The notes under the pieces are model-generated. The model was not told the DNA's origin, made no database searches, and saw only the letters and a list, made by a program, of their open reading frames with translations. The translations under genes were made by a program, and so were the position numbers. Shown here in pieces: positions 1-32,269 of a stretch of 32,492 nt of DNA. This stretch comes from a virus (taxonomy: Duplodnaviria; Heunggongvirae; Uroviricota; Caudoviricetes): the IMG/VR virus record IMGVR_UViG_2744054675_000007, positions 1 through 32,492 of that record. One strand, written 5' to 3'. The stretch's first letter is position 1; every line of letters starts with the position of its first letter.

Positions 1-1254
1 ATGCTGGAACAAATGGGCATTGCCGCGAAGCAAGCCTCGTATAAATTAGCGCAACTCTCCAGCCGCGAAAAAAATCGTGTGCTGGAAAAAATCGCCGATG
101 AACTGGAAGCACAAAGCGAAAGTATCCTCAACGCTAACGCGCAGGATGTTGCAGACGCGTGTGCCAATGGCCTTAGCGAAGCGATGCTTGACCGTCTGGC
201 ACTGACGCCCGCACGGCTGAAAGGCATTGCCGACGATGTGCGCCAGGTGTGCAATCTCGCCGATCCGGTGGGGCAGGTAATCGATGGCGGCGTACTGGAC
301 AGCGGCCTGCGTCTTGAGCGTCGTCGCGTACCGCTGGGGGTGATTGGCGTGATTTATGAAGCGCGCCCGAACGTGACGGTTGATGTTGCTTCCCTGTGCC
401 TGAAAACCGGTAACGCGGTGATCCTGCGCGGCGGCAAAGAAACCTGTCGCACTAACGCTGCAACGGTAGCGGTGATTCAGGACGCCCTGAAATCCTGCGG
501 CTTACCGGCGGGTGCCGTGCAGGCAATTGATAATCCTGACCGTGCGCTGGTCAGTGAAATGCTGCGTATGGATAAATACATCGACATGCTGATCCCGCGC
601 GGTGGGGCTGGTTTGCATAAACTGTGCCGCGAGCAGTCGACAATCCCGGTGATCACAGGCGGTATAGGCGTATGCCATATTTACGTTGATGAAAGCGCAG
701 AGATCGCTGAAGCATTAAAAGTGATCGTCAACGCGAAAACTCAGCGACCGAGCACATGTAATACGGTAGAAACGTTGCTGGTAAATAAAAACATCGCAGA
801 TAGCTTCCTGCCCGCATTAAGCAAACAAATGGCGGAAAGCGGCGTGACGTTACACGCTGATGCAGCCGCGCTGGCGCAGTTGCAGGCAGGCCCCGCGAAG
901 GTGGTGGCTGTTAAAGCCGAAGAGTATGACGATGAGTTTCTGTCATTAGATTTGAACGTCAAAATCGTTAGCGATCTGGATGACGCCATTGCCCATATTC
1001 GTGAACACGGCACGCAACACTCCGATGCGATCCTGACCCGCGATATGCGCAACGCCCAGCGTTTTGTTAACGAAGTGGATTCCTCCGCTGTTTACGTTAA
1101 CGCCTCTACGCGTTTTACCGACGGCGGCCAGTTTGGTCTGGGGGCGGAAGTTGCGGTAAGCACACAAAAACTCCACGCGCGCGGCCCAATGGGGCTGGAA
1201 GCTCTGACCACTTACAAGTGGATCGGCATTGGTGATTACACCATTCGTGCGTAA
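1..1254 (+). CDS. proA: gamma-glutamyl phosphate reductase, complete 417 aa
   Basis: Full-length ORF whose translation matches enterobacterial ProA as I recall it along its whole length; sits immediately upstream of the thrW-type tRNA as in E. coli. Confidence 0.93.
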
Positions 1255-1368: not shown

Positions 1369-1444
1369 GCCGATATAGCTCAGTTGGTAGAGCAGCGCAT
1401 TCGTAATGCGAAGGTCGTAGGTTCGACTCCTATTATCGGCACCA
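1369..1444 (+). tRNA. thrW: tRNA-Thr, anticodon CGT (thrW-type); its 3' end is the likely prophage attachment core
   Basis: 76 nt GCCGATATAGCTCAGTTGGTAGAGCAGCGCATTCGTAATGCGAAGGTCGTAGGTTCGACTCCTATTATCGGCACCA; folds as a cloverleaf with anticodon loop TTCGTAA and a 3' CCA. Confidence 0.85.
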
Positions 1445-7468: not shown

Positions 7469-8357
7469 CCTCCAGTTTTGCTTTGCATTCTGCGTAAATG
7501 GCTTGTACGTTCTGCTGCAATTTCATTCCAGATGTCAGGCGATATGCTTCTGCAAAATATCGCTTCAAATCATCCATGTTTTCTGCCTGAGCCATTTCAT
7601 CACAAAGAAGTTGTGCTTTTTCCATTATTTCCTGCTGGCGTTTCCGTTCATCTTCGCGGATATCTTCCTCTGATTTGTGCGGCATAACTGGTTCAGTCCA
7701 CACACCTTCTTCTTCGTTTAGTACGTGAATAGCACTATCAAGACGTGATGCCTTAGGCCAATACTTGCTTGCACGCTTTACGACCGTCTTTCGCGCCATC
7801 TCATTCCAGTGATTTACCCATGGTCCTTTATCGCTGAATGCTGCCTTGCTTGTTTTCCTTACAGCCTCAATTTCAGCCAGACTCATCTCTTCCGTTAGAT
7901 AATCACCTGCTGGCGTCTTAACTGTGCAGTAAACGCCAACGATATCACCACGATCACCGAAGGCGTTGTATTTATGGGTTGGTGCTTTATCAAGCCCGTT
8001 TGACTCATAGGTATCGTTAGCATGAACAAGTTTTGCCTGACCCCATGAGATAACACCAGACTCCATTGCAATATGGAGCAATCCCATATAACTGATATCA
8101 AGGCAAACCATGCCGTCGCGCGGAACTAGATAAGCAAGTTTGCTGGCCGGGTTTAAGGTGATGCCGATCGCCGCAACATTGATGATGGCGTTCTGTGCGC
8201 TGGTTGGATTTGCCAGTGCCGTTTTAGCCAGGTAATCGTTTTTCTGGAAATACTGAATTGCAAACTGGCTTTCCTTAGCCCATGTCACCGTCTGTTCAGT
8301 CAATGCTCCGCAGAATAACTGCTCCTGCTGTTTAACGAATTCAACGATATTGCTCAT
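7446..8357 (-). CDS. recT: RecT-family single-strand annealing recombinase
   Basis: 303 aa; segment GPWVNHWNEMARKTVVKRASKYWP matches my recollection of E. coli RecT (GPWVTHWEEMAKKTAIRRLFKYLP). Confidence 0.85.
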   Translation of the reverse strand: MSNIVEFVKQQEQLFCGALTEQTVTWAKESQFAIQYFQKNDYLAKTALANPTSAQNAIINVAAIGITLNPASKLAYLVPRDGMVCLDISYMGLLHIAMESGVISWGQAKLVHANDTYESNGLDKAPTHKYNAFGDRGDIVGVYCTVKTPAGDYLTEEMSLAEIEAVRKTSKAAFSDKGPWVNHWNEMARKTVVKRASKYWPKASRLDSAIHVLNEEEGVWTEPVMPHKSEEDIREDERKRQQEIMEKAQLLCDEMAQAENMDDLKRYFAEAYRLTSGMKLQQNVQAIYAECKAKLEVASEQTI

Positions 8358-17136: not shown

Positions 17137-17321
17137 ACGCCACAATTCAAACGATACCAGAGCTTCTTATCCAGACACGAGGCAATCAGACCGAAGTGGC
17201 GAGGATGCTTTCCTGCGCAAGAGGAACAGTGCTCAAGTACAACCGAGACAGCAAAGGCGAGCGTCACGTAATAGTTAACGGCGTCCTGATGGTCAAACAG
17301 GGCAAGAGGGGAAGACGATGA
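17133..17321 (+). CDS. ninH: NinH-family protein
   Basis: 62 aa; TIPELLIQTRGNQTEVARMLSCARGTVLKY resembles lambda NinH (TIPDMLVEAYGNQTEVARRLKCSRGTVRKY). Confidence 0.75.
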   Translation: MNATIQTIPELLIQTRGNQTEVARMLSCARGTVLKYNRDSKGERHVIVNGVLMVKQGKRGRR

Positions 17322-17836
17322 GCATAAGAGAACTAAACCTCACCAAAGAGCAGCACGAGTGGCTGAATGGCTGGCTTGAACTGTGGGGCGCATGGGTTTA
17401 TTCAGGTCGTCTGGAAAAGCGCATGAGCAGCGTAATAGCGAAGTTCATGGAGAGCGTAGAGCCGGGAAGAATTATGACAAGGCCAATGTGTAATGATGAT
17501 GATGGAATGTTGATTTCTCAGGTCGTCGATTCCGTCATGTACATTGACAAGAAAGCCTTTGGCATCCTCCTCAGCTACTACGCTCATGGTTCATCTAAGC
17601 GAGCAATTGCATCCTACTATCACGCGACTGCAAAGCCACGCAAGATGTGTGGACGTGGTGGCGAGGGATGGAGAAAACCTTCACTGGCAACCTGTAGAAA
17701 CGAAATTGACGACATCCTGAAAGCGTCGTTATTTGTTTTGTACCAGCCAATGCAAAATGCTTTCAAAATGCGTAAACGTGTTGAGAAAGTTAAGCATGTT
17801 GCTGTTAAAAACCTTGACATGCAATTAGCCATTTAG
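17318..17836 (+). CDS. Q: late-gene antiterminator Q (family uncertain)
   Basis: 172 aa ORF at the canonical Q position between ninH and the late promoter/lysis genes; Cys/His-containing; assignment mainly positional. Confidence 0.55.
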   Translation: MSIRELNLTKEQHEWLNGWLELWGAWVYSGRLEKRMSSVIAKFMESVEPGRIMTRPMCNDDDGMLISQVVDSVMYIDKKAFGILLSYYAHGSSKRAIASYYHATAKPRKMCGRGGEGWRKPSLATCRNEIDDILKASLFVLYQPMQNAFKMRKRVEKVKHVAVKNLDMQLAI

Positions 17837-17898: not shown

Positions 17899-17973
17899 GG
17901 GTCAGTCGTATAAAGGTCATTACGGAAGGCTGTTAACCTTCTTATCGTGGTTCGAGTCCACGCTGTCCCGCCA
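17899..17973 (+). tRNA. phage-encoded tRNA-like gene, anticodon GTT (Asn)
   Basis: 75 nt hand-folded cloverleaf: acceptor GGGTCAG/CTGTCCC (one T-T mismatch), anticodon stem GAAGG/CCTTC with loop CTGTTAA, canonical T-arm CGTGG-TTCGAGT-CCACG, 3' GCCA. Confidence 0.45.
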
Positions 17974-17978
17974 AACAT

Positions 17979-18054
17979 GCTGATTTAGCTCCAATGGTAG
18001 AGCAGTCGCCTTGTAAGCGAATGGGTAGCGGGTCAAGTCCGTTAACCAGCACCA
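17979..18054 (+). tRNA. phage-encoded tRNA-like gene, anticodon TGT (Thr)
   Basis: 76 nt hand-folded cloverleaf: acceptor GCTGATT/AACCAGC (one mismatch), D-arm GCTC-CAATGGTA-GAGC, anticodon loop CTTGTAA, T-arm AGCGG-GTCAAGT-CCGTT, 3' ACCA. Confidence 0.45.
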
Positions 18055-28209: not shown

Positions 28210-28398
28210 ATGGCACGAACAATGCTCTATAAGCCGGGCAACATGATCACCTGTGGTCAGTTTGCTGTCGATTACATCATTGTTGATGACGAAGAAGTTA
28301 AATCTCACCTGAAAAAAGGCTGGGTAAAAACTCCTGAAGAAACCGCAACGAAGCAAAAAGTGGCTAAGGCGGAAGAAGATGGCGAAAACGAAGGGTGA
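28210..28398 (+). CDS. small hypothetical protein, 62 aa
   Basis: GGAGAAGA RBS before ATG at 28210 (MARTMLYKPGNMITCGQF...); between coat and the gp4-like gene. Confidence 0.45.
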   Translation: MARTMLYKPGNMITCGQFAVDYIIVDDEEVKSHLKKGWVKTPEETATKQKVAKAEEDGENEG

Positions 28399-28840
28399 TC
28401 TCGTTCTTAAGGCTTTACGAAAAGCCGGGCTGTATTCCAATGCCACGTTGACAGATGCCGACCCTCAGGCAATAGAAGATGCCATTAATGACCTCGAAGA
28501 CATGATGGCAGCATGGCAGGCGAAAGGTATCGAGCTTGGATATCAGTTTGCTGATACAGAAAACGGCATCATGCCGTTACCTGACGATGATTCAGGTATC
28601 CCTGCATGGGCAAATGATGGCGTCGCTTTGAAACTCGCTGTGCAAGTGTGCATGGATAACGTCATTCAGCCGTCAGATGCTCTCCTTACCGCTGCTGACA
28701 GCGCATATCAGACAATCTGCATCGCTTTAACCAAAATACCACCACTTGAGCGGCGAAATGACATGCCTCGCGGTAGTGGTAACAAAAGCGCGTTTACGTG
28801 GAATCGGTTTTACATCGAGAAAGATGATCCGAGTACGTGA
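28379..28840 (+). CDS. head completion/portal-associated protein, P22 gp4-like
   Basis: 153 aa ORF at the gp4 position. Confidence 0.7.
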   Translation: MAKTKGDLVLKALRKAGLYSNATLTDADPQAIEDAINDLEDMMAAWQAKGIELGYQFADTENGIMPLPDDDSGIPAWANDGVALKLAVQVCMDNVIQPSDALLTAADSAYQTICIALTKIPPLERRNDMPRGSGNKSAFTWNRFYIEKDDPST

Positions 28841-28849
28841 GGTGAATAA

Positions 28850-30268
28850 ATGCCGATTCAGCAACTTCCGCTTATGAAAGGTGTCGGCAAAGACTTCCGA
28901 AACGCCGACTATATCGACTATCTGCCAGTGAATATGCTGGCTACACCCAAAGAAATACTCAACAGCAGCGGATATCTTCGCTCATTCCCGGGCATTGCCA
29001 AACGCTCTGATGTAAACGGTGTATCGCGCGGAGTCGAGTACAACATGGCGCAGAATGCTGTTTATCGCGTGTGTGGCAGCAAGCTGTATAAGGGCGAAAG
29101 TGAAGTCGGTGATGTTGCCGGAAGTGGTAGAGTATCAATGGCGCATGGTCGAACATCTCAGGCTGTAGGCGTTAATGGTCAACTGGTCGAGTATCGTTAT
29201 GATGGCACGGTTAAAACCGTCTCAAACTGGCCTACAGACAGTGGATTCACTCAGTATGAGTTAGGTTCAGTTCGCGACATTACGCGCTTACGTGGGCGTT
29301 ATGCGTGGTCAAAAGACGGCACTGATTCATGGTTTATCACTGACCTTGAAGACGAATCGCACCCTGACCGCTACAGCGCACAATATCGTGCCGAGTCGCA
29401 GCCTGACGGCATCATCGGCATCGGAACATGGCGAGACTTCATCGTCTGCTTTGGTTCATCGACGATTGAATATTTCTCCCTGACGGGTGCAACAACCGTT
29501 GGTGCCGCGTTGTATGTCGCACAGCCATCGCTGATGGTGCAGAAAGGCATTGCCGGAACCTACTGCAAAACGCCGTTTGCTGATTCCTATGCGTTCATCA
29601 GCAATCCGGCAACAGGTGCGCCGTCTGTGTATATCATCGGCTCAGGTCAGGTATCACCAATCGCCAGCGCGAGCATTGAGAAAATACTACGCTCCTACAC
29701 TGCTGATGAACTGGCTGATGGCGTGATGGAATCGTTGCGGTTTGATGCTCATGAGTTGCTGATTATTCACCTGCCGCGCCATGTTCTTGTTTACGACGCA
29801 TCTTCAAGCGCCAATGGTCCGCAATGGTGTGTGTTGAAAACAGGCCTGTATGACGATGTGTACCGCGCTATCGACTTCATTTACGAAGGCAATCAGATAA
29901 CGTGCGGCGATAAGCTGGAGTCCGTGACCGGGAAATTGCAATTCGACATCAGCAGCCAGTACGACAAGCAACAGGAACACCTGCTGTTTACTCCGTTGTT
30001 CAAAGCGGATAACGCCAGAGTGTTCGACCTTGAGGTTGAATCGTCAACTGGCGTTGCGCAGTACGCCGACCGCCTTTTTCTCTCTGCAACCACTGACGGC
30101 ATCAATTACGGGCGTGAGCAGATGATTGAGCAGAATGAACCGTTCGTTTACGACAAGCGTGTTTTGTGGAAGCGAGTAGGGCGCATCAGGAAAAATGTCG
30201 GCTTCAAATTGCGCGTTATCACGAAGTCATCTGTCACTCTGTCTGGCGCTCAGATAAGGATTGAGTAA
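28850..30268 (+). CDS. head completion protein, P22 gp10-like
   Basis: 472 aa ORF at the gp10 position. Confidence 0.75.
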
Positions 30269-31116
30269 TGGCTGATTCGAATCTCAATGTGCCGGTAATC
30301 ATCCAAGCTACGCGGCTCGATACATCAGTCCTTCCACGCAATATCTTCTCGCAGTCGTATCTGCTTTACGTTATCGCACAGGGCACTGATGTTGGTAACG
30401 TGGCGAACAAGGCCAACGAGGCCGGACAGGGCGCTTATGACGCACAAGTCAGGAACGATGAGCAGGATGTGATTCTCGCTGACCATGAGCAGCGAATTTC
30501 TGCTGCGGAAGCAACACTTGTTAATCATGAGGAGCGAATCAGCCAGGCAGAATCAACTCTTCAGGAACATGAAACGCGAATCGCTCAGAATGAAAGCGAT
30601 ATTGCGTCGCTTGATACCAGAGTTCAGTCGCTGGAATCGCAGGTTTCAGACCATGAATCGCGCATTGATGCTCTGGAGTATGCCACTACTCGCAAGAAGT
30701 CAGAGGTTGTTTACTCTGGCGTATCTGTAACCATCCCGACAGCGCCGACCGACCTTGTTAGCCTGCTGAAAACGCTCACGCCGTCATCCGGCACGTTGGC
30801 ACCATTCTTCGACACCGTTAACAACAAGATGGTTGTGTTCAACGAGAACAAAACCTTGTTCTTCAAGCTGTCGATCGTCGGGACGTGGCCCAGCGGAACC
30901 GCCAACAGGTCAATGCAGCTAACCTTTTCCGGCTCTGTTCCTGACACGTTGGTCAGCAGTCGTAATGCGGCGACAACAACCGACAACATCCTGTTAGCTA
31001 CGTTCTTCAGCGTGGATAAAGACGGCTTTCTTGCCACAAATGGCAGTACGTTAACCATTCAGTCAAATGGGGCGGCGTTTACTGCCACAACCATCAAGAT
31101 AATCGCGGAGCAGTAA
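30268..31116 (+). CDS. tail needle protein (P22 gp26-like N-terminus and coiled coil, divergent C-terminal domain)
   Basis: N-terminus [43 protein letters not shown] matches gp26; central repeats of the HE.RI type; about 130 aa C-terminal region unlike P22. Confidence 0.8.
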
Positions 31117-31571
31117 TGATTCAGTTCAAACCAACGCGAAACATCGACCTGATAGAAGCAGTCGGAAATCACCCTGACATTATTGCCGGGAGCAACAACG
31201 GTGATGGATACGACTATAAACATGATTGCCGTTACTTTGAGGTGAACGTGCACTGGCAGTTCGGCGGCATTGTTTACTATCAGGAGATTCAGCCGCTGAC
31301 ATTCGATTGCCACGCCATGTACCTGCCAGAGGTTCGTGGATTCAGCAAGGAAATCGGGCTGGCGTTCTGGCGATACATTCTGACTAACACCACCGTTCAG
31401 TGCGTCACATCATTTGCTGCACGCAAATTCCGCCACGGTCAGATGTACTGCGCAATGATTGGCCTTAAGCGTGTAGGAACCATCAAGAAATACTTCAAAG
31501 GCGTGGATGACGTGACGTTTTACAGCGCAACACGCGAAGAACTAATCGACTTCCTGAATCACGGGAGATAG
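31116..31571 (+). CDS. virion assembly protein, P22 gp14-like (positional)
   Basis: 151 aa ORF directly after the tail needle, ATGA-coupled. Confidence 0.5.
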   Translation: MIQFKPTRNIDLIEAVGNHPDIIAGSNNGDGYDYKHDCRYFEVNVHWQFGGIVYYQEIQPLTFDCHAMYLPEVRGFSKEIGLAFWRYILTNTTVQCVTSFAARKFRHGQMYCAMIGLKRVGTIKKYFKGVDDVTFYSATREELIDFLNHGR

Positions 31572-31573
31572 CC

Positions 31574-32269
31574 ATGTTATATGCATTTAAGCTGGGCAGA
31601 AAACTGCGCGGCGAGGAACCTTATTGCCCTGAAAAAGGCGGGAAAGGTGGCAGTTCTGATAAAAGTGCAAAGTATGCCGCAGAAGCTCAGAAGTATGCCG
31701 CAGACCTGCAAAATCAGCAGTTCAACACCATCATGAACAACCTGAAACCGTTTACTCCTCTGGCTGAGAAGTATGTCGGCAGCCTCGAGAACTTATCGTC
31801 TCTGGAGGGGCAAGGTCAGGCACTTAACCAGTATTACAACTCTCAGCAGTACAAAGATCTTGCTGGTCAGGCGCGCTATCAGAGTCTGGCTGCAGCGGAA
31901 GCAACAGGTGGATTGGGTTCCACCGCAACCAGTAATCAGTTAGCAACAATCGCACCAACGCTTGGTCAGCAGTGGCTGTCTGGTCAGATGAACAACTACC
32001 AGAATCTGGCAAACGTTGGGTTTGGTGCTCTGCAAGGTCAGGCAAACGCAGGGCAGACATATGCCAACAACATGAGCCAGATTTCACAGCAAAGCGCGGC
32101 ACTGGCGGCGGCAAACGCTAATAGACCTTCCGGCCTTCAATCTGCAATAGGCGGGGCTGCCTCTGGAGCAATTGCTGGAGCACAGCTTGGCAGCATTGTT
32201 CCCGGTATTGGTACTGGTATTGGTGCCGCTGTTGGCGGCGGTCTTGGTCTTCTTGGTTCACTGTTTTAA
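31574..32269 (+). CDS. ejection protein, P22 gp7-like
   Basis: 231 aa; Gln/Ala/Gly-rich with Gly-rich hydrophobic C-terminus. Confidence 0.65.
   Translation: MLYAFKLGRKLRGEEPYCPEKGGKGGSSDKSAKYAAEAQKYAADLQNQQFNTIMNNLKPFTPLAEKYVGSLENLSSLEGQGQALNQYYNSQQYKDLAGQARYQSLAAAEATGGLGSTATSNQLATIAPTLGQQWLSGQMNNYQNLANVGFGALQGQANAGQTYANNMSQISQQSAALAAANANRPSGLQSAIGGAASGAIAGAQLGSIVPGIGTGIGAAVGGGLGLLGSLF

Follow-up and report, generated by a model that had tools for sequence, protein, structure and literature searches.

An Sf6-type tail needle gene in a P22-like prophage of Escherichia coli

Introduction

The needle that closes the tail of P22-like phages has been described for Sf6, HS1 and P22. The full-length needle of Sf6, gp9, has been modelled into the cryo-EM density of the virion, where the needle N termini take up a quasi-sixfold conformation that reconciles a trimeric needle with a hexameric hub (PMC9728967). 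Crystals of the Sf6 and HS1 knobs, which lie at the needle tip, bind three L-glutamates and yielded a list of the residues in contact with L-glutamate, together with a phosphate triad at the distal tip (PMC3741392). The same report describes the knob fold as TNF-like, resembling the knobs of adenovirus fibre and PRD1 (PMC3741392). In P22, cryo-electron tomography has captured a sequence in which the needle contacts the cell surface, the particle reorients and the needle is lost, after which the ejection proteins build a conduit across the envelope (PMC9400499).

The tips of these needles are not all alike. Needles of the P22 type, such as the 233-aa gp26 of HK620 (PDB 5BU5, 5BU8, 5BVZ), are knobless. 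Leavitt et al. 2013 found Sf6-type knobs in 69 of 164 P22-like genomes, only in phages of Escherichia and Shigella and in none of 48 Salmonella phages (PMC3741392). Among P22-like phages these knobs vary by no more than 4.9% (Leavitt et al. 2013; PMC3741392).

Here we analyse a needle gene contained in a 32,492-nucleotide stretch of viral DNA, referred to below as the window. The needle that it encodes is already known, having been characterised, crystallised and correctly auto-annotated, and the locus holds nothing new. For annotation purposes ‘tail needle protein, Sf6-type knob’ is a suitable label, and the gene can serve as one marker for a prophage of the P22-like group (Lederbergvirus) at thrW. 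The needle also provides a textbook case of domain-level mosaicism, its plug, shaft and tip being exchanged independently. This mosaicism was reportedly described in 2011-2013, with structural confirmation in 2022.

Gene structure and genomic context

The features of the window that bear on the needle are collected in Table 1. The gene itself occupies exactly 30268-31116, as initially annotated: the ORF list and the translation both give a single open frame of 282 codons with an ATG start and a TAA stop, and the translation contains no internal stop. It aligns colinearly with Sf6 gene 9, without indels, and for that reason a reading of the ORF as two genes was rejected. At the 5' end the ATG shares one base with the TAA of the upstream 472-aa gp10 ORF, and at the 3' end the TAA shares one base with the ATG of a downstream 151-aa ORF, the junction reading TAATG in both places. 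A one-base shared junction is likewise present 5' of gene 9 in the Sf6 annotation (record position 8254).

Table 1. Positions in the window of the needle gene, its modules and other features
Feature	Position	Strand	Basis or remark
proA, E. coli chromosome	1-1254		left window end
tRNA-Thr(CGT), thrW	1369-1444		left window end
Tyrosine integrase	1459-2619	minus
Q-like antiterminator	17318-17836
Phage tRNA-Asn(GTT) and tRNA-Thr(TGT)	17899-18054		just downstream of the Q-like antiterminator
gp4-type head-to-tail adaptor	28379-28840	plus	PHROG 637, E 5.7e-70
gp10-type tail hub (head closure Hc3), with a hexameric channel expected to be plugged by the needle	28850-30268	plus	PHROG 578, E 2.6e-228
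AAGGA Shine-Dalgarno-like motif	30256-30260	plus	7 nt 5' of the needle ATG, read from the sequence
Tail needle gene, orthologue of Sf6 gene 9 and P22 gene 26	30268-31116	plus	ORF list and translation
N-terminal plug domain, codons 1-73	30268-30486	plus	BLASTP and PDB matches; hub-binding role from PMC9728967
Coiled-coil shaft, codons 74-140	30487-30687	plus	periodicity, a/d register, identity to P22 and Sf6
Sf6-type C-terminal knob, codons 141-282	30688-31113	plus	PDB 3RWN and 4K6B, PF16532, ligand residues
gp14 homologue (DUF2824)	31116-31571	plus	PHROG 651, E 4.5e-77
gp7-type ejection protein	31574-32269	plus	PHROG 598, E 1.3e-98
Gene-20 homologue	from 32280, past the window end	plus	open frame; synteny with Sf6 and P22

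The GC content of the knob segment is 0.518, compared with 0.505 for the remainder of the needle gene and 0.483 for the window, and on this comparison there is no indication of a foreign origin of the knob segment. Tandem Repeats Finder reported no DNA-level tandem repeats between 30200 and 31200. The 14-residue periodicity of the shaft (see below) is thus visible in the protein only, which argues that the shaft is not a recent array of DNA duplications.

On either side of the needle gene lie a gp10-type hub gene, syntenic with Sf6 gene 8 and P22 gene 10, and a gp14 homologue, syntenic with Sf6 gene 10 and P22 gene 14. This gp10-needle-gp14 order is the same in Sf6, HK620, P22 and a prophage of E. 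coli E62. Upstream of the gp4 gene are those for the small and large terminase, portal, scaffold and coat, all of which match PHROG families, so that the virion module represented in the window (terminases, portal, scaffold, coat, gp4, gp10, gp14 and gp7) appears intact. From terminase to needle, the module is about 94% identical to those of phiKp_30, phiv205-1, Kapi1 and CUS-3, Sf6 being more distant. The presence of proA, thrW and the integrase gene within positions 1-2619 points to a prophage integrated at thrW beside proA. The two phage tRNA genes downstream of the antiterminator are also found, at 96-98% identity, in Sf6, BTP1, vB_SosS_Oslo and 720R6; being annotated in all four, the pair is nothing unusual in phages of this group.

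Domain composition of the needle

The protein was compared with the products of Sf6 gene 9, HK620 gene 26 and P22 gene 26 and with the E. coli E62 prophage copy, both by alignment and by segment-wise BLASTP. It is made up of three modules, for which the relationships to these needles differ.

The plug domain, residues 1-73, is identical to that of Sf6 gp9 (100%) and shares 94.5% identity with HK620 and 82% with P22 gp26. When only residues 1-60 are considered the corresponding values are 100%, 96.7% and, for P22 gp26, 81.7% (E 7e-34). The initial annotation had called the first 60 or so residues near-identical to P22 gp26; the homology is clear, although at 81.7% the wording was slightly generous. 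A search of PDB chains matched the domain to 8EAP_B (gp26 residues 1-62; E 1.7e-27) and also to 2POH and 3C9I.

Coiled-coil repeats had been noted in the middle of the protein and are readily recognised there. Residues 74-140 form five 14-residue double-heptad units with the pattern H-E-x-R-I-x-x-x-E-x-x-(L/I/V)-x-x. When the heptads are placed in their best register, L, I, V or M occurs at 13 of the 23 a/d positions, compared with 1-10 in the other registers. BLASTP identity in this segment is 94% to Sf6, about 31% to the P22 shaft (E 5e-11) and about 29% to HK620. With HMMER searches of PDB chains, residues 1-137/144 could be aligned to the P22 gp26 structures 2POH, 3C9I, 4ZKP, 4LIN and 4ZXQ (E about 5e-44). 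Like the shafts of its close homologues, this one is probably a trimeric coiled coil.

For the C-terminal part the closest matches lie elsewhere. Among all PDB chains, residues 130-282 match the Sf6 knob (3RWN, ‘Gene 9 protein’; E 4.5e-90) and the ‘HS1 knob domain’ (4K6B; E 1.3e-89), both at about 98% identity. The Pfam family PF16532 (Phage_tail_NK, ‘Sf6-type phage tail needle knob’) is matched with 384.5 bits against a cut-off of 27, all 175 positions of the profile being covered by needle residues 108-282, while the PHROGs family phrog_1030, ‘tail needle knob’, matches the full length of the needle (E 9e-135). Together these results support the original suggestion that the protein resembles the knob-bearing needles of other P22-like phages. 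We gave greater weight to the near-identity (98%) with two crystal structures, one of them determined at 1.1 Å, than to any structure model.

The initial annotation also held that the last 130 or so residues are unrelated to P22 gp26, and this is borne out. Starting from the motif that it named, residues 147-282 (136 aa) are 97.8% identical to Sf6 gp9 (E 8e-94). The same segment has no significant BLASTP match to P22 gp26, the best reaching only E 0.17 over 29 aa, and it has no BLASTP match at all to HK620 gp26. Nor do residues 141-282 show significant BLASTP similarity to the P22 and HK620 tips (residues 141-233), so that the tip is not of the P22 type. When the knob region is aligned to those tips with MAFFT, the alignment contains many gaps and only scattered identities. 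Thus, with the P22, Sf6 and HK620 needles side by side, the C-terminal region is alignable to Sf6 and not to P22 gp26. It follows that the domain does differ from that of P22, as had been claimed, but that ‘divergent’ is not the right term, since the tip is a non-homologous replacement. Chance does not account for any of these results.

The residues that contact L-glutamate in the crystals (E146, K200, S248, D250, L255 and K277) are all kept in the knob of the window, and its phosphate triad, S231-R232-N233, is intact. By homology, the knob is predicted to be a TNF-like jelly-roll trimer with one L-glutamate site at each subunit interface.

Comparison with characterised needles

The closest of the characterised needles is that of Sf6. 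The two proteins are of equal length (282 aa) and agree at 275 of 282 residues, with no indels; at the DNA level the genes are 95.6% identical. They have the three-module architecture in common, with identities of 100% in the plug, 94% in the shaft and 98% in the knob, and Sf6 also has the same neighbouring genes, the same TAATG junctions and the same L-glutamate and phosphate contact residues. Written with the window residue first, the seven differences are S92R, E100D, A113S, S131T, D162N, A234S and A270S.

Three of these, out of 142 residues (2.1%), fall in the knob, a difference that lies inside the published 4.9% spread. Read in the Sf6-to-window direction they are N162D, S234A, which adjoins S231-R232-N233, and S270A. 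The idea that they alter the interaction of the knob with ligand or membrane, and in this way tune delivery kinetics or host preference, strikes us as very improbable. At position 270 the alanine of the window is shared with HS1, Sf6 having serine.

While the HS1 knob is about 98% identical (E 1.3e-89), the HS1 needle as a whole is longer, with 317 aa and 16 shaft heptads (PMC3741392) against 11 heptads in Sf6 and the window. The shaft of the window needle is therefore of the short Sf6 type, unlike that of HS1. Longer shafts are also seen among other relatives. The needle genes of 720R6, Gally and JEP4 give two-piece matches with 105 extra bases (35 aa, five heptads). In records ON470605.1, OV696608.1 and MT740315.1 the gene spans 952 nt compared with 847 nt in the query, an excess of the same size. 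This length corresponds to a long shaft of the HS1 type (317 aa), the N-terminal domain and the knob being the same. Shaft length is evidently polymorphic among close relatives of the needle.

P22 gp26 has a homologous plug (82% over residues 1-73) and a homologous trimeric coiled-coil core (about 31%), and gene 26 likewise lies between genes 10 and 14; its plug-and-release role is presumably the same. Its tip (residues 141-233), in contrast, is replaced in the window by a non-homologous knob of 142 residues. Of the two further needles proposed as comparators alongside P22, Sf6 proved apt but HK620 did not, its 233-aa needle being P22-type and without a knob. The HK620 gene is 89.8% identical in DNA over its first 224 nt and similarity stops around codon 75. 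More generally, for HK620, Dewey and UPF_BP1, DNA similarity ends at nt 209-224, about codons 70-75. A break at this point supports the published view that plug, shaft and tip are exchanged independently.

Among E. coli prophage copies the best match, from strain E62, has three residue differences from the window needle, and the gene is 96.7% identical in DNA to that of the Kapi1 ‘tail needle knob protein’. Across Sf6, Kapi1, N7, Louie and phiKp_30, DNA identity ranges from 95.6 to 96.7%.

Identity and function of the needle

Every attribute of an Sf6-type needle that can be read from a sequence is present in the window: plug, shaft, knob, ligand residues and a position between the gp10 and gp14 genes. 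Taking together the matches to 3RWN and 4K6B, PF16532 and PHROG 1030, the mere seven differences from Sf6 gp9 in 282 residues, the conserved ligand residues and the synteny, the gene almost certainly encodes a tail needle of the Sf6 type in an E. coli prophage of the P22-like group (Lederbergvirus), with plug, shaft and knob, that would be released at infection. No feature of the sequence speaks against this identification.

The overall identity of 98% to Sf6 gp9 suggests that the protein would be a homotrimer in the virion (PMC9728967). Three chains would thus form a needle fibre of three modules. The N-terminal helical domain (about residues 1-73) would enter the hexameric gp10 hub, seal the portal channel and retain the DNA. 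From there the trimeric coiled-coil shaft (residues 74-140, about 11 heptads) would extend past the tailspikes and carry at its tip the jelly-roll knob (residues 141-282), with one L-glutamate per subunit interface. As the tailspikes digest the O-antigen, the needle tip would be brought to the outer membrane, and release of the needle would then unplug the channel, allowing the homologues of gp7, gp20 and gp16 to exit along with the DNA. The type of tip may alter the kinetics of this release step, rather than the choice of host. This picture of trimer formation, plugging, release and a kinetic role leans on homology together with experiments on Sf6, HS1 and P22.

The experiments of most relevance to the tip are those with chimeras. 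P22 carrying the Sf6 or HS1 knob infects Salmonella normally, whereas several changes to the tip slow the release of K+, and hence DNA delivery; in the P22 hybrid with the HS1 knob, K+ is released at 40-70% of the wild-type rate (PMC3741392). For Sf6, selected host-range mutations are located in the tailspike (PMC9400499). The normal infection by the chimeras and the location of the Sf6 mutations speak against the proposal in the initial annotation that the needle tip may influence host range. Given normal infection combined with slower K+ release, the best-supported interpretation is that the needle acts as a plug whose tip would affect delivery kinetics and would not be a determinant of host range.

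A different role for the knob has nevertheless to be considered: it might bind a receptor and so determine host range, for example through OmpA or OmpC in the outer membrane, in the manner of the adenovirus and PRD1 knobs. The crystallographic report likens its TNF-like fold to that of the knobs with which adenovirus fibre and PRD1 bind their receptors, and places the knob where it would be the first part to meet the outer membrane (PMC3741392). The restriction of Sf6-type knobs to Escherichia and Shigella phages in the 2013 survey of 164 genomes (PMC3741392) would also suit such a role. We nonetheless consider it unlikely, as P22 furnished with either knob plates on Salmonella as well as infecting it normally (PMC3741392), and a record labelled as a Klebsiella phage has a needle gene 96% identical to that of the window.

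Two further readings concern the integrity of the gene. It might be a relic in a defective prophage fragment from which a functional needle is no longer made. Few-gene remnants carrying a homologue of the Sf6-type needle were reported from more than 100 E. coli genomes by Leavitt et al. 2013 (PMC3741392), truncated copies are common in our own searches (919 records match the needle gene, but only 474 of them at 80% coverage or more) and the window stops before the tailspike gene. Against this, the ORF is untruncated and aligns colinearly with Sf6 gp9 from end to end, and it stands in a contiguous series of intact ORFs that includes the thrW integrase, Q-like antiterminator, endolysin and terminases and runs through gp7 to the start of gp20. 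These ORFs have strong family matches and the array exceeds a few-gene fragment, making a relic quite improbable here. As to whether the ORF could be a fusion, or an annotation artefact, of a gp26 N-terminal fragment and a separate knob gene, genes for stand-alone knobs with little or no N-terminal extension do exist in large virulent phages (PMC3741392). Here, though, the open frame is unbroken, architecture and length equal those of Sf6 gp9, and the coiled coil is continuous into the knob, the 3RWN and 4K6B constructs themselves holding shaft residues from position 130. An origin by such an artefact can be given practically no credence.

Distribution of the needle and its knob

A protein of exactly this 282-aa sequence is already present in NCBI under WP_063266262.1 (‘tail needle knob protein [Escherichia coli]’). 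The 90%-identity cluster to which it belongs has 3,620 members. A search of 5,426 complete E. coli genomes gave matches to the gene in 915; in at least 471 the match extends over 80% or more of its length, and RefSeq uses the label ‘tail needle knob protein’. About a tenth of complete E. coli genomes carry the gene.

The 90% cluster also lists two entries of 153-159 aa named ‘DUF2824 family protein’ which have no sequence in common with the needle. They resemble the neighbouring gp14 family and were dismissed, their inclusion looking like a collection artefact.

The phage phiKp_30 (LC768498.2), labelled as infecting Klebsiella pneumoniae, carries a knobbed needle gene at 96.0% DNA identity. 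Between 12744 and 22692, this genome matches 92% of the virion module of the window at 94% identity.

Beyond the P22-like group, knob-only homologues that share the PF16532 knob are found at 33-50% identity over about residues 140-268. Examples come from the Ackermannviridae (Cba120 and SFP10), the T4-like RB43 and Aeromonas phage 31, with others in the phages SUMAE (Vibrio), PP99 (Pectobacterium) and ECBP5 (E. coli). Most of these matches begin at about residues 112-142 and do not include the gp26 plug domain, and their existence fits the published idea that the knob came into the P22-like group from outside. Many of the genes are annotated as ‘hypothetical’. The match to E. coli phage sortsyn covers more of the needle, residues 8-268, at 42% identity.
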